The position numbers were made by a program, and so were the translations under genes. Below are positions 38,020 to 49,800 of a stretch of DNA of 64,000 nt, one piece after another. Position 1 is the stretch's first letter, and each line of letters opens with the position of its first letter. The notes beneath the pieces are model-generated. The model saw nothing but the letters and a program-made list of their open reading frames with translations. It did not search any database and was not told the DNA's origin. Origin of the DNA: Psammoneis japonica (lineage: Eukaryota); contig QPGO01000120.1 of NCBI GenBank assembly GCA_008632985.1, positions 124,001-188,000 on the forward strand, written 5' to 3'.

Positions 38020-39410
38020 GGCTCATACGCCCAAAATCAATCGCTGTCCGATGAGAAACGCAACAAGGGAACACGGAACGATGAGCGACGATCGACGACA
38101 CAAAAACAGCCCGTCCAAGAAAAAAGCATGCATTAGCCTGCAACATGAGTGTTCCTGCCAGGAATGATGGCAGCCCCAGAGCCGAGGCTGGTGGCACACA
38201 CAACAACAAAAGTGGGACAACATGTCCTTCATCAATGCCTTCTTTTGACTGACTGCCATGAGCCATGATGAGCAAGACCGGAGAAACAAGTTTTGGAGAA
38301 AGAAGCGCCCCCCCCACACACCAAAATTTTTTTGCTTGGCAAAAATGTCAGAGTGTTGCAGGAAGATGCTGAGGAGGAAGAACAGTGGGAAATTTGACGC
38401 ACGTGTGGGGAGGCTCTCCTGCTTGCTTGCTGGGGCTGGAAGCACGGCACAGTTGGAAGTGACACAGCCCCAGCCGGAGGTGATTCTCGAGTGCCCCCAC
38501 CAAATTCCACATGCTCAAGAGAACTGCAGAGGTTGCAAAAAACTTCTTGGAAACTCTCTCCTCATGCTGAACCTGGTTGTGAAGCTGCGAGCACTCACCC
38601 ATGCTGTGCTCAGCTGAAGCTGCAGAAGGAGCTTGTTGCTCACGCTTCTCAACCAGGCTGAAGCTGTGAGAAAGAAGATGGGGGGGGGGGCATTCTTGAG
38701 ATGCAGATTGCAGCTTCCAAAGAGATTGGCAAGTGTCTTGAACTCACCAAGAAGCTCGTGAGAATGAAAGATGACAAAAACGAGTGCCCGGTGGAGCTCA
38801 TGCCTGAGAAAAAAGAGTGCGAAATGGCGTGCTTCCAAGCAAGATGGATGAACTTGAGAAGCAGAGATTGCAGCTGCCAAAGAGAGTGACAACTCTGGAA
38901 AGTGTTTTGAACTCATCAAAGAGCACATGAGAATGAAAGATGATGAAAATGAGCACCTGCAGGTGGAGCTTGTGAGAAAAAAAAAGATGGTGCCAAATGG
39001 TGTGCTTTCCAAGTTTGCATCTGCACCACAAAAAAGTGCACCAGACTTTCCATCAGCTGGCAGGACACAGAGAGGCTGAATTGCCATGTCACACAGGGTC
39101 AAAAAAGGAAACCCATTTGGATGCTTCTTGTGACGCTCATCACAGCTTCAACCTCAAAGGGATGGCCATGCATTGTTGAGCTCAACAATTTTTGCATTCC
39201 TGTCAAACAAAGATCAGCACTGTGGGGGTTCAATGATGCTGATGGCTCTGTGGAAAAGCTGAACAACAAGAATTGTGCAGCCAAAAGTGCAAAAATTGAC
39301 AGCGATGAAAGAGGCAATGGTGGTGGAAGTGGGCACAGAACTTTCTGCCTGGGACTGCTGCAAAGAATTTTTTTGTGCATTTTCATGTGACTTTCATCAA
39401 CAATTGTGAC
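38020..39410 (+). repeat. Dispersed repeat family C, copy 1 (decayed gene with internal coiled-coil-coding repeats)
   Basis: Colinear with 48335-49800; internal unit gaactca...gagaatgaaagatga...gtggagct occurs twice. Confidence 0.85.
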
Positions 39411-41680
39411 AGGCATCTGAGCTGGGCACTTGCTCTGTGAAGCAGCCAAAGGCAGAAATGATGCTGAGCTCTCTTGTGAGCCAGGCTGCTGTGCCTTGCA
39501 AGTGCACTCCTCACCATGTGTTTGGGGCCGATTTGTCAGCTTTGCTTTCTTGTGGGTTGGCAGCAGCAAGAGCAAAGTCTTGGCAACTTTGTGGGAACAA
39601 GAAGATTGCTGGGGGGGCTTTGTCAGTCCACAGCTTCAAAAGCCTTCTGACGTGTCATTGTCCCTGTCATCTGCAGCTGCACCTTTCATTTGCAGTGTCT
39701 GGCAAAGTGTCAAGGATTGCCCTGTCCAGTGTGTTGATGCAACCATTCTTGTCTCAATGGCAAGCCCCTGTTTTTATTCAGTGTCATCTCTCCAACACTG
39801 CAATGCACAGCTGTGTTTGTCTTGGCAGCACAGCCACATGGAAATGTGTGGTGTGTGCTGGCATGGTGGAGTGTGATGGAAAAGGTCCTCAGTCACAGGC
39901 AAGCAAATGCTGGCTGGAGAAACCTTCAATGCATGTGTGCTTGAAACAGAGATGCAGCAAACAAAGGTGCTTTGTGTGGGCAAGGTCATTTCCATCATCT
40001 CTGGCCATGCAAAGAGGATGGAAAATTGGTGGGAGTGGGTGGCAAGCTGGTGGAAGTGTGTTCTTGGGAGCATCTGACTCATCCCACACCTTGTCACTGG
40101 AGCTGAGTCAAAAGAGTGTGGCTTGTCACTTGCACAGGAAGAAGTTGTGGTGCAACACAAGCTTGAGGGGCTGGCAAGCATGCCCAACATTCATTGTAAA
40201 AAAAACAGCTGCAGCCCCAGTGAGTCCATTGTGAAGAAGGGTCAACTGAGCTCCCATGAGATGAGCCCATTGTCCCCACTGTGGCGCATGACTGGGTGGC
40301 TGCACTCAAGCAAGAAAAGCAACAACTCACACATGTGCAAGTTGCTGCATTGGAAGCCAAACAGAATGAGGTCCAGGAACAAGATGCAGCCTTTTTGAAA
40401 TCCACAAGTGAGTCACTGGAAGCTGACAAGGAAGCTTGGCAGATGTGTGTTGAGCAGGTGCAGGAAGAAGGAGCACTCATTTGGAGAACAGCTGAGGAAA
40501 GAATGTGCTTGTTGCCACTGCAAGAAAAAGAAACCTGGCTTGTGCTTCTGCCAGAAACAGAGCCACAACTTTGATGTTCTTTGAAATGCAAATCACAAAA
40601 CAAGTTGAGAATGCAGGGCATCATTTTGCTTTGTCCAGCCAGATCTAAGATGAAAACAAGAATTGTTTTGCTTTTGATCATCCATGACCAATCTGTCAGC
40701 AACTGAGGCCAATCTTCTGGGAAACACATGTCAGCAAAACAGAGCTTTCTTTTTTCATTTTTTCCAGAATTTCACCTTGTTGTCCATTTGAACAAAGGGA
40801 CATCCAAGTCCCTTTGACTTGAGATTGACGCACCCTGCAGCACTTGCAAACTCACTCAGACCATGCTGTTTGAGGCTGCTCAGAGAGCACAAAAAAAAAA
40901 AGCCTGGCTTTTGTTGGGCTTGACCTCCTTGCACTGCTTTAACAAGATCTTCAGAAAGAATTTTTTGCATGCTTGGATTATCAGGAACCCCTCATGAGCA
41001 TGCACTTTGCCAACGTTGGTCAAGCAGAGCTCGTTGCCGCCAAAACAAGCAGTCAAATCTAGTTCGCTCTTTTGTTTCCACGTCAACTCACAAAAGAAGA
41101 GTGAGTGCAAGCCTGGCTGCCTTTGCAAACCCACACCCATCTGTCATTTTCTTTTAACAAGGCTGCATTCCATGCCCAAAAAAGCAAGAGAACCACTTTT
41201 TGCAAGTCTGCTTGTTTTGCACTTGCACCCTTCCCTGGCCTGGTGAGCTTTTCACTGGGAGAGTTTGCTGGCTTTGAATCATCGACATTGGCTGCCTGAC
41301 CTTTTCACTTTTTGTGGGTTCCACTTTGACACTTCTGCTGCTCATGCTGGCCTCAGGATCACTCTCACATGGAGTTGGTTTGGGGTGATCCATTTGGGAC
41401 TCCACAGCAACTTTGGCTGACATTTCAGTGACGAAATTGAGCACAAGGGTTGCACAAAAAATCAAGGCCATGAGTTGGCCGCAGACTTTTGGACAAAATG
41501 GAGCTTGCTGTCTTTCGCAGACCAAGCAAAACTGCCATGTTCTGTCGGTGTCCATCTACTGGCCTTTGACACGCACGGTGCACTTTGCACCGTTTCCCAA
41601 TGTGACGATTCATTGCTCACAGAGGGAGTCGCCGCAAATACGTTGAAACTGTGTGCTCGCCGCACGCAAATGTCATCTGC
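38140..41680. other. TpA- and CpG-depleted block 4
   Basis: TA rare; abrupt return at 41681 (tagctagctcttagtagagtaccgtagtag). Confidence 0.9.
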
Positions 41681-47500: not shown

Positions 47501-49655
47501 CTCAAGTTCTGTGGTCCTCAAAGAAATCCATCAAAGACAACCACAGCAGAACAATCCAGGGGTGTTGAAGAGCAGCAAATCAGTGTGAGAGCAGCTTCAA
47601 AAAGTCAATTGTCAGGAGCGGGATCAAGCTTTGTCAAATGGTCATTGACACAGGTCAATCCTCCTTGTTGGAGAGTTTCTTACAACAAAGTGAATCAACA
47701 TCAGTGCCTGCATCCATGCAAGCTGCTAAAACTTGCCATGCATTGTAATTTCAGGAAATTTCAAAAGGCACAGCATCGACTGGGTCCAGCCTGCACAGAA
47801 ATGCAAAGTGTCAGTGCACTCAAGTGCCCAGAATGGCATGCGGGGAAGATCTCAAGATGACACAAAGCATGAAAGAAGTCCTGAGAACTGTCATGGGAGT
47901 CAAGATGATGGCAAACAAATGAAAATGCAAGTTGTAGATTTTTAGACACCGTCAGTGCTTGTGGCTCTTTTCACTTTAAAATTGATCACACCACTTGCCT
48001 CCATCTCAAAGTGAAAAATGGCACTGGTCCAAATGACAGAAAGGAGACTCATTTGTTCTTGTGCAAGTCTTTCTTGAAGGTGCAGCCACAGCGAGCAAGA
48101 ATGGAGCCATCATGATGAACTTGTCATTTTGCGCACAATCATGGAGTTTGCTCAAGAAGGCCATTTAGAGTCCACACAATCCTGGCACAGAAACCACAAC
48201 AAAAGGTCTGGCAAAGCCCCATTTTTTTGTGATGGACATGACACTTGTGTGGACAACCACCAGCTGAGCAGCACTCCCCAGTGTTTGGAACAAAGAAAAT
48301 GCTGAGACACTGACAAATTTTGTGCACATGAAAGTTTCAATGCACCCAAAATCAATTGGTGTGCAATCATGGCCATTGAAAAAACAACCAACCAACCCAC
48401 AGAATGCAGAAGGAAGAGCAATGACACCACAGCCCATCCAAGAAAAAATGTTCATCAGCCTGCAACCAAATGTTCCCATCAGGAATGATGGAAGAAGCAC
48501 AAGAGCTGGGGCTGGTGACACAACAAAAAAGCCAAGCAGTGTCCTTCTTGTTGCCTTCCAACTGCATGTGAACTGCAAGCAAGACCGGAGAGACAAGTTT
48601 GAGAAAGAAGTGGCAACCCACACACCAGCAAACATCTTTTGTTGCTTGGCAAAAATGTCACAGTGTTGCAGGAAAATGCTGAGGAGGAGAAAGAACCACA
48701 GGAAGCTTTGATGCACACCTCCAGAGTCTCTCCTCTTGCCAGGGAAGGCACAATTGAAAGAGACATGCAGCCTTGGAGGAGGTGATTCTTGAGTGCCTTT
48801 GCCAAATCCCACATGCTCAAGAGAGCTGCAGAGGCTGCACAAAATGTCTGGGAAACTCTTTCAGCATGCTGAGCTCGGTTGAAGAAGCTGCAAGCATTCA
48901 CCAATGCTGGGGTTCAATTTGAAGCTGCAAGCCCTCACTCATGCTGGAACCAGCTGAAGCCATGAGAAAGAAAAGAGGGGCAATCTTGAGAAGCAAATTG
49001 CAGCTGCCAAAGACAGTGGCAACTCTGGAAAGAGTGTCTTGAACTCATCCATGAGAATGAAAGATGATGAAAATGAGTGCCTTGTGGAGCTCATGAGAAA
49101 AAAATGATGCCAAATGGTGTGCTTCTGACAAGCAGATTGCAACTGGTGCTAAAGAGAGCAACAACTCTGGAAAACATCTTGAACTCATCCATGAGAATGA
49201 AAGACAATGAAAATGAGTGCCTTGCAGAGCTCATGAGAAAAAAGATGAGATGCCAAATGGCACACTTCCGAGAAGCAGATTGCAACTGCCAAAGAGAGCA
49301 ACAACTCTGGAAAGTGTCTTGAACTCATCAAGGAGCACATGAGAATGAAAAGCAATGAAAATGAGTTCCCACAGGTGGAGCTTGTGAGAAAAAAAGATGG
49401 TGCCAAATGGCTCGCTTCCCAATCAAGTTTGCATCTGCACTACAAAAAAGTGTGCCAGACTTTCCATCAGCTGGCAGGATGCAGAGAGGCTGAATTGCCA
49501 AGTCACACAGGGTCAAAAAAGGGAAACCATTTGAATGCTTCTTGTGACACTCATCACAGCATCAACCTCAACGGGATGGCCATTGTTGAGCTCAACAATT
49601 TGTGCAGTCCTGTCAAACAAAGATCAGCACTGTGGGGATTCAATGATGCTGATGG
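43950..49655. other. TpA- and CpG-depleted block 5
   Basis: Only about 2 TA found in 43981-47640 (44923, 47182). Confidence 0.92.
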
Positions 49656-49800
49656 CTTATGTAGTTGAAAGAGTAGAAATAGACAGTGACGACGGAGGCG
49701 ACGGTGGGGGGAGTAGTCGGAACGTAACTTCCCGCCTGGGACCAGAAAACGTTTTTCTGTGCGTGTTTTCTGTAACTTTCATTTTAGTGTAATAATTATA
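48335..49800 (+). repeat. Dispersed repeat family C, copy 2
   Basis: Colinear with 38020-39410; the internal ~140-bp unit occurs three times (48995-49410). Confidence 0.85.

Follow-up and report, generated by a model that had tools for sequence, protein, structure and literature searches.

Seven blocks poor in the dinucleotides TA and CG, here called A to G, occupy about half (31.7 kb) of the 64,000-nucleotide stretch analysed in this work (the window: positions 124,001 to 188,000 of contig QPGO01000120.1, renumbered from its first base), which we treat as coming from a diatom nucleus because the relatives of its PLP (pyridoxal phosphate) enzyme and of its peptidase are those of diatoms. Two copies of one direct repeat, lying 10.3 kb apart, run out of blocks D and E into DNA of ordinary composition, and at these edges the copy outside the block keeps TA and CG where the copy inside carries TG or CA. 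We consider that a domain-restricted process acting on DNA and turning TpA into TpG or CpA, accompanied by a slower loss of CpG, is probably the explanation of these blocks.

Composition and borders of the blocks

The blocks (31,665 bases) and the normal part of the window (32,330 bases) have the same base composition and differ in their dinucleotides. TA falls about 10-fold, from 38.0/kb in normal DNA to 3.6/kb in the blocks, and CG from 57.3/kb to 20.5/kb, whereas TG rises from 72.1/kb to 104.7/kb and CA from 78.0/kb to 113.4/kb. The four pyrimidine-purine (Y-R) steps add up to 242.2/kb in the blocks versus 245.4/kb in normal DNA, and by this mass balance each TA or CG lost was replaced, through a transition, by one TG or CA. 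The effect is specific for these dinucleotides, as AA is not depleted (89.8/kb in the blocks, 81.8/kb in normal DNA). At a scale of 1 kb, intervals inside blocks hold 0-7 TA versus 20-63 in wholly normal intervals, and in those lying wholly inside blocks the observed/expected ratio of TA is 0.00-0.12; CG is often at 2-20/kb there, and TG and CA stand at about twice their expectation.

The blocks (Table 1) occupy long intergenic gaps and end near the ends of open reading frames (ORFs) and near CpG-dense clusters, which adjoin several borders (37927-38112, 52186-52241 and 53829-53994). Their borders are sharp and are resolved to tens of bases. Indeed, at the right end of block E the TA at 49441 is followed by others at 49658, 49662 and 49674, and at its left end the TA at 43945 is the last before 44923.

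Two repeat copies across the block borders

The comparison of the two repeat copies had been suggested by a sequence-only reading of the window, and all the short strings that it quoted from both copies are present where it placed them. Our pairwise alignment runs from 38025/48340 to 39400/49785 and, past a 7-base indel, the match reaches about 39415/49805; beyond this indel, caacaattgtg in copy 1 stands opposite taataattata in copy 2. The right edge of copy 2, outside the depleted block, had been described as keeping TA and CG where copy 1 has TG and CA, and the counts agree: over 118 dinucleotide columns, the 7 TA of copy 2 lie opposite TG (2), CA (2) or other dinucleotides (3) and its 9 CG opposite TG (3), CA (3) or others (3), copy 1 having no TA and a single CG. 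The reciprocal sparing of the left edge of copy 1 is clear for CG and weak for TA. In the 111 dinucleotide columns of this edge, copy 1 has 11 CG, opposite CA (5), TG (3) or others (3), and only 2 TA, one opposite TG and one opposite CA, and copy 2 has neither TA nor CG. Two caveats apply to these edges: the left one, spared mainly for CG, lies in a CpG-dense stretch, and the border in copy 2, at 49657, coincides with a 26-base indel of the alignment.

In the interior of the alignment (991 columns) both copies are depleted, and we counted 890 identities, 85 transitions and 58 transversions. Exchanges of TG for CA account for 15 of the 42 adjacent double differences, against a mean of 1.42 and a maximum of 7 in 5000 shuffles. 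Two mutations are needed for such a swap, except where the copies share an ancestral TA or CG that each resolved in its own way; much of the mutation therefore followed the duplication and struck each copy independently. The 15 swaps imply some 30-40 independently converted sites in about 1 kb, compared with about 95 TA plus CG expected per kb.

Being direct repeats, the two copies may mark the ends of a single old element that escaped mutation over its outermost ~120 bases. A Pfam scan of the ORFs of blocks D and E found no gag or pol remnant between them, leaving the idea of long terminal repeats without protein support, and an apparently spliced, ordinary gene sits between the two copies.

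Transposon genes and the direction of change

The direction of change, from TA and CG to TG and CA, is fixed by outgroups at the protein level. The left 5 kb of block A, TA-poor and normal for CG, contains two very long open frames, P0242 and P0241. The product of P0242 has 188 relatives at E <= 0.001, 20 of which are at <= 1e-30. The alignment of this family shows conserved H-x-x-R and C-terminal Tyr columns, which we take to be the catalytic motif of a recombinase, and two of six full-length homologues give matches to the Pfam family Phage_integrase, both below threshold (E 0.0011 and 0.0016). We tentatively assign P0242 to a tyrosine-recombinase transposon, Crypton and DIRS-like elements having been considered.

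None of the 434 residues of P0242 is a Tyr, whereas each of ten relatives has 12-18. Opposite the Tyr of these relatives P0242 has His or Cys in 60 of 124 alignment cells. Seven columns have Tyr in at least 7 of the 10 relatives; at four of them P0242 carries Cys, His, His and Cys, and at the other three Phe, Arg and Trp. The conserved C-terminal Tyr column, presumably the catalytic one, is among the four and is occupied by Cys. The second frame, P0241, has a single relative, P0243, which is 38% identical to it and carries a CCHC zinc knuckle, with a match just under threshold. Only 1 of the 630 residues of P0241 is a Tyr versus 14 of 510 in P0243, and the 13 aligned Tyr of P0243 are replaced by Cys in 7 cases, by His in 1 and by other residues in 4, with 1 kept. 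A Tyr codon (TAY) turned into TGY (Cys) or CAY (His) is exactly the change proposed here, and since TA to TG or CA changes can produce no new stop codon, these dead transposon genes are still open over 630 and 434 codons. We also observed that TA-free DNA gives many long spurious ORFs, TGA being the only stop codon left.

The poverty in TA is not a trait of this element family, because all 13 metagenomic loci encoding relatives of P0242 have ordinary TA (observed/expected 0.45-0.84), these loci being unmutated relatives only and too distant for polarisation at the DNA level. Moreover, among the 150 relatives listed, four (P0269, P0339, P0345 and P0352) have no Tyr at all; they carry Cys or His at 13 of 15 conserved-Tyr columns and are 25-42% identical to P0242 and to each other, and mutated copies thus exist elsewhere in public data. 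The protein outgroups, the TG/CA swaps and the mass balance all agree with the direction that had been read from the repeat edges.

Strand use

In every block TG and CA occur in about equal numbers and are intermixed, so that both strands have been hit, as the sequence-only reading held. Along the DNA their order shows no strand runs in the six blocks analysed (z from -1.61 to +0.43), and hence no sign of processive single-strand events, which speaks against an intermediate of single-stranded RNA or cDNA. This bears on the idea that the RNA or cDNA of retroelements was edited before integration by an ADAR- or APOBEC-like enzyme, the block borders being element ends. The transposon genes of block A would suit such editing, as would the preference of ADAR for a 5' U, given in the accessible text of Mettrop et al. 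(bioRxiv 10.64898/2026.01.13.699255). However, TG and CA are mixed in a way not expected of a single-stranded intermediate, borders fall inside homologous DNA, and the loss is near-complete and limited to TA, with AA undepleted; this explanation, already disfavoured, appears to us extremely improbable.

Location of the mutated state

A self-comparison of the window with purines and pyrimidines collapsed yielded three further pairs made up of an in-block and an outside member (Table 1), which with the two edges of the main repeat make five border-straddling pairs. When these are pooled, TG or CA stands opposite 12 of the 16 TA and 27 of the 33 CG in the outside copies. The reverse is rare: within blocks a single CG and a single TA lie opposite something else, as does one CG at the right edge of copy 1. 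In all five pairs the mutated state follows location and not the sequence of the repeat, which argues against recognition of the repeat's own sequence.

Two other repeats point the same way. At 43450-43768, about 230 bases from block E, lies an insert of 319 bases resembling a miniature inverted-repeat transposable element (MITE), with an internal 39-nt inverted repeat at 43563-43657, which is TA-rich and unmutated. It is high-copy (k-mer depth 1283-3615 versus ~57), and its presence is polymorphic, since one contig of the public run X1 (see below) skips it. This insert also argues against repeat-sequence recognition, but it may simply be too young. In addition, both copies of a 150-base repeat (11935-12086 and 19687-19836, 92% identity) lie in TA-normal DNA, and repetition alone thus brings no depletion.

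Homology-dependent targeting, as in fungal repeat-induced point mutation (RIP), would make the domains mirror repeat content instead of chromatin position. The blocks do have repeat families in common, and diatoms possess DNMT4 enzymes related to fungal RID, whose function is given as unknown in the accessible part of PMC9998398. Nevertheless, each straddling pair has one copy unmutated over homologous DNA, the high-copy MITE-like insert retains dense TA, the 150-base repeat stays TA-normal and the direction is the opposite one, TA being lost and not gained; we regard such targeting as very unlikely. That position and not repeat sequence sets the mutated state, as the sequence-only reading proposed, is the best available reading: the five pairs and the untouched insert speak for it, and it is left unproven, with one border at an indel. 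The layout of the blocks would fit a domain of silent chromatin.

TA loss and CG loss

The sequence-only reading had seen a single mutated domain. The domain is there, but it combines two processes, TA loss reaching further than CG loss. Indeed, TA alone is lost in bases 1-5250 (TA observed/expected about 0.1, CG 0.71-0.96), in block G and at the start of blocks E and D (over ~750 and ~300-450 bases, respectively).

The bases flanking the dinucleotide separate the two losses as well. Per Y-R site (R, purine; Y, pyrimidine), residual TA in the blocks amounts to 0.17% in RTAY (3/1731), 1.4% in the mixed contexts (51/3680) and 2.6% in YTAR (41/1609), versus 21%, 15% and 11%, respectively, in normal DNA; relative to normal DNA, residual TA is thus about 30 times rarer in R-TA-Y than in Y-TA-R (chi-square over ten contexts 74.7, p 1.8e-12). 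The TG plus CA sites from which new TA could arise are about equally numerous in the two extreme classes (1592 versus 1438), so that the residual TA is not just fresh random mutation. By contrast, CG survival is flat over the three flank classes (7.9, 8.2 and 8.1%), which leads us to regard the loss of CG as distinct and slower, its simplest explanation being decay by deamination of methylated CpG; diatom transposons are reported as CpG-methylated in the accessible part of PMC9998398. We further noticed that the gain in the mixed class is lopsided, RCAR plus YTGY rising by 30.9/kb and RTGR plus YCAY by 10.4/kb, the contributions of TA and CG being inseparable in these figures. These figures hint at an effect of a pyrimidine placed 3' of the target A.

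Read support and polymorphism

The public run X1 contains 82% of the sampled words of the window. Its k-mer contigs, at an even depth of ~42-79, cover blocks D and E in pieces that each show 0-10 differences, and one of them bridges the border at 49657 with 0 differences. Because k-mer contigs need accurate reads, an artefact of basecalling at modified bases is unlikely.

These data bear on the proposal that the blocks, as foreign or selected DNA, lacked TA and CG from the outset, or else that they are a sequencing artefact at modified bases. Sharp compositional borders do look like insertions, and modified bases can mislead some basecallers. On the other hand, the replacement of Tyr by Cys and His against the outgroups, the Y-R mass balance, the straddling repeats and the agreement of the evenly covered X1 contigs with the window all oppose it, and on these grounds we regard it as scarcely credible.

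X1 differs from the window at 98 places, 40 of which were displayed, and 22 of those displayed lie in blocks. Fifteen of these 22 are interchanges among TA, CG, TG and CA, including a CA-to-TG swap at 45979-80, and X1 keeps TA at three in-block sites (38171, 45116 and 46965), which hints at a conversion so recent that it is still polymorphic. Close to blocks D and E, on their outer side, X1 compared with the window shows TA to TG or CA at 37810, 37812, 37886 and 43946, and just outside block E a TG-to-CA swap at 43907-8 and a CA to TA at 43952. These sites, near contig ends, are a weak sign that border positions may differ between haplotypes.

Genes and other features of the window

Table 1. 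Coordinates of the features discussed. Block extents were defined at 250-base resolution, at which blocks E and G read 44000-49650 and 56000-56500.
Feature	Position	Strand	Description
Repeat copy 1	38025..39415	+	Left end of block D; aligned to copy 2
Repeat copy 2	48340..49805	+	Right end of block E; aligned to copy 1
Copy-1 left edge	38025..38144	+	11 CG and 2 TA kept where copy 2 has TG/CA; part of CpG-dense 37927-38112
Copy-2 right edge	49657..49805	+	Outside block E; TA and CG kept; starts at the 26-base indel
Tandem units of ~140-160 bases	38698..39013	+	Inside copy 1; copy 2 holds three units at 48967-49427
Block A	1..10700	.	TA-poor throughout (53 TA); CG normal to ~5250, depleted beyond
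Block B	14200..17500	.	TA 18, CG 81
Block C	25750..32250	.	TA 19, CG 64
Block D	38030..41500	.	TA 8, CG 39; CG loss begins ~300-450 bases inside the TA border
Block E	44000..49656	.	TA 11, CG 54; first ~750 bases TA-free with CG kept
Block F	52200..53750	.	TA 3, CG 26; CpG-dense clusters on both flanks
Block G	56000..56630	.	TA-poor only (1 TA); CG normal
P0241 ORF	552..2441	-	630 codons, 1 Tyr; gag-like
P0242 ORF	3201..4502	-	434 codons, 0 Tyr; relative of a family with weak Phage_integrase (tyrosine-recombinase) matches
Straddling pair, in-block member	27558..27637	+	Partner 32362-32442, normal DNA; partner TA 5 to CA 4, AA 1; CG 4 to CA 2, TG 2
Straddling pair, in-block member	7151..7220	+	Inverted partner 17803-17872, normal DNA; partner TA 1 to CA; CG 5 to CA 3, TG 2
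Straddling pair, in-block member	30310..30385	+	Partner 25736-25805, straddling the left border of block C; partner TA 1 to TG; CG 4 to CA 2, TG 2
M16 peptidase ORF	Ordinary part		Family match; CpG-dense 37927-38112 lies upstream of this ORF
Cys/Met PLP enzyme	Ordinary part		Family match
GPN-type ATPase	Ordinary part		Family match
Tesmin/TSO1-like CXC protein	Ordinary part		Family match

By a family scan of the window, the parts of ordinary composition hold long, intron-poor ORFs encoding ordinary eukaryotic proteins. The PLP enzyme is 82% identical to a protein of Trieres chinensis and 75-78% identical to proteins of Minutocellus, Seminavis and Attheya, and the named relatives of the M16 peptidase are also diatoms. 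A tRNA scan and an Rfam scan of the window were both empty.

The GT34-like ORF at 42394-43446 has an intron at 42357-42450, where a contig of a second run, X2, skips 92 bases with CT..AC ends, that is GT..AG on the minus strand; this run is listed as 'DNA?', and by this skip it looks RNA-like. In the stretch examined the X2 contigs lie on gene regions, except for three short low-complexity matches at 46621-46656, and the lack of X2 cover over the blocks was not used as evidence.

Several repeated segments lie inside the blocks. A tandem array at 5309-6591, in the CG-depleted part of block A, has units of ~165-175 bases in several registers, and the 343- and 358-codon open frames within it on the minus strand gave no family match. 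A single N at 16046 stands between two 1.1-kb segments (14926-17163) that are 99.55% identical, probably an assembly or gap-closing duplication, and a second N, at 30752, adjoins tandem repeats of ~335 bases (30752-31615).

Proposed mechanism

We propose that the long intergenic stretches derive, at least partly, from transposons, and that a domain-restricted process acting on DNA would convert nearly every TpA in them to TpG or CpA on either strand, halting sharply within ~100-350 bases of the flanking genes, often at CpG-dense clusters that resemble promoters. A second process, slower and spatially narrower, would remove most CpG, its simplest form being methylated-CpG deamination. The repeat copies would have been duplicated before much of the mutation, each then being mutated only inside its own local domain, so that ancestral TA and CG survive at their outer edges. 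The sequence itself establishes the direction of change, its dinucleotide specificity, its occurrence on both strands, the sharpness of the borders, the distinctness of the TA and CG losses and the inactivation of conserved tyrosines in a transposon. As to the chemistry, we infer that an enzyme preferring 5'-R-T-A-Y-3' deaminates adenine to inosine, which is then read as G, and a role in genome defence may be envisaged, as proposed for the chlorarachniophyte Bigelowiella natans.

Several points weigh against this proposal. Part of the change may predate the duplication, because the 30-40 converted sites are fewer than the ~95 TA plus CG expected per kb, or outcomes may be biased by context. 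The flanking-base preference assumes that the blocks once had the composition of the DNA around them. Recognisable transposon genes are confined to the left part of block A: the 125 ORFs of at least ~98 residues in all blocks gave no Pfam match above threshold, and the 78 ORFs of 45-97 residues in blocks D and E only Pfam noise below it. No record gives the library type of X1, and this run may share its sample with the assembly. The guidance of the process by silent chromatin is likewise something that we infer, from the sequence. Finally, TA is palindromic, and a change of A to G on one strand is indistinguishable from T to C on the other.

The last point gives room to a chemistry of thymine, in which the T of TpA would be modified (to 5-hydroxymethyluracil or a mark like base J), would mispair and so yield T-to-C changes, the domains and the products being unchanged. 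The palindrome makes these products identical to those of adenine deamination, and the 5-hydroxymethyluracil of dinoflagellates reportedly favours TpA and TpC. Nothing in the window bears on the choice, but the sole experimental precedent, that of B. natans, is read by its authors, in the accessible text, as adenine deamination, itself unproven, and we think a thymine chemistry unlikely.

A bolder version of our proposal can be put forward only tentatively. Diatoms might own a chromatin-guided defence that edits bases of double-stranded chromosomal DNA, A to G at TpA (best in R-T-A-Y), throughout silenced DNA and up to the CpG clusters of promoters, leaving the frames of transposons open and free of tyrosine. 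Its enzyme would be a natural TA-specific DNA adenine editor. As the same signature is found in a rhizarian, this system may be ancient within SAR (the stramenopile, alveolate and rhizarian supergroup).

We found one prior description of a region-specific, enzyme-like A-to-G mutation of nuclear DNA, a chlorarachniophyte preprint (2026). Its signature, which here reaches saturation in half of the 64-kb window, is thereby extended to the diatoms, which are major, ecologically dominant and genetically tractable algae, and this suggests a genome defence widespread among eukaryotes. No consensus is needed to fix the direction, given the straddling repeats and the tyrosine-free transposon genes, and the separation from CpG loss together with the flanking-base preference provides first constraints on the enzyme. 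In practice, long false ORFs will be predicted in TA-free DNA, protein homology will not serve to annotate its transposons, and the dinucleotide statistics of such genomes will be bimodal.

Comparison with known systems

Fungal RIP turns CpA into TpA, so that TA rises, is triggered by duplication and acts before meiosis. It resembles the present case in that dense transitions, tied to a dinucleotide context and falling on both strands, inactivate transposons. However, the TA enrichment expected under RIP is absent here, TA falling and CA and TG being enriched; moreover, RIP mutates all copies over the duplicated length, whereas one copy is unmutated in each of our five straddling pairs.

The decay of methylated CpG in vertebrates and plants also turns CG into TG or CA in transposon-rich domains and spares CpG-dense promoter-like clusters, as seen here, but it explains the CG half only and cannot remove TA. 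ADAR hyper-editing and APOBEC3 share with our case a deaminase-driven hypermutation directed against mobile elements. They differ from it by acting on RNA or single-stranded cDNA and by marking one strand, and neither fully erases one dinucleotide on both strands of chromosomal DNA.

Closest to our window is the TpA hypermutation of integrated DNA of nucleocytoplasmic large DNA viruses (NCLDV) and virophages in B. natans, for which the statements that follow are taken from the accessible text of the preprint (Mettrop et al., bioRxiv 10.64898/2026.01.13.699255). In mutation-accumulation lines, 231 of 302 mutations fell within two integrated viral regions, and 230 of these 231 were A/T-to-G/C changes on TpA; the genome holds 124 clusters of TpA-poor windows, and the authors propose an ADAT2-like DNA adenine deaminase, which is unproven. 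Both systems show TpA to TpG or CpA changes, in discrete regions (where the rate in B. natans is ~1000-fold over the rest of the genome), and clusters of 1-kb windows poor in TpA and rich in CpA and TpG. The enrichment of low-TpA genes of B. natans for transposon and viral domains may be counted as a further likeness.

The two cases differ in several respects. The host is a rhizarian there and a diatom here, and depletion is partial in B. natans (Rho TpA of 0.45 in the NCLDV region, the virophage region being still TA-rich) versus observed/expected values of 0.00-0.12 in our blocks. The accessible text of the preprint describes neither a loss of CpG, co-located with that of TA here, nor a flanking-base preference or the anatomy of borders, both of which we see, and the tyrosine-free transposon genes likewise set the present case apart. 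In our literature search the preprint was the only match, and no report of such hypermutation in diatoms was found. The evidence also differs in kind, consisting of de novo mutations in B. natans and of a fossil record in the sequence here. As far as these searches show, the phenomenon has been described once before, in B. natans, and the present window adds a diatom case to it.

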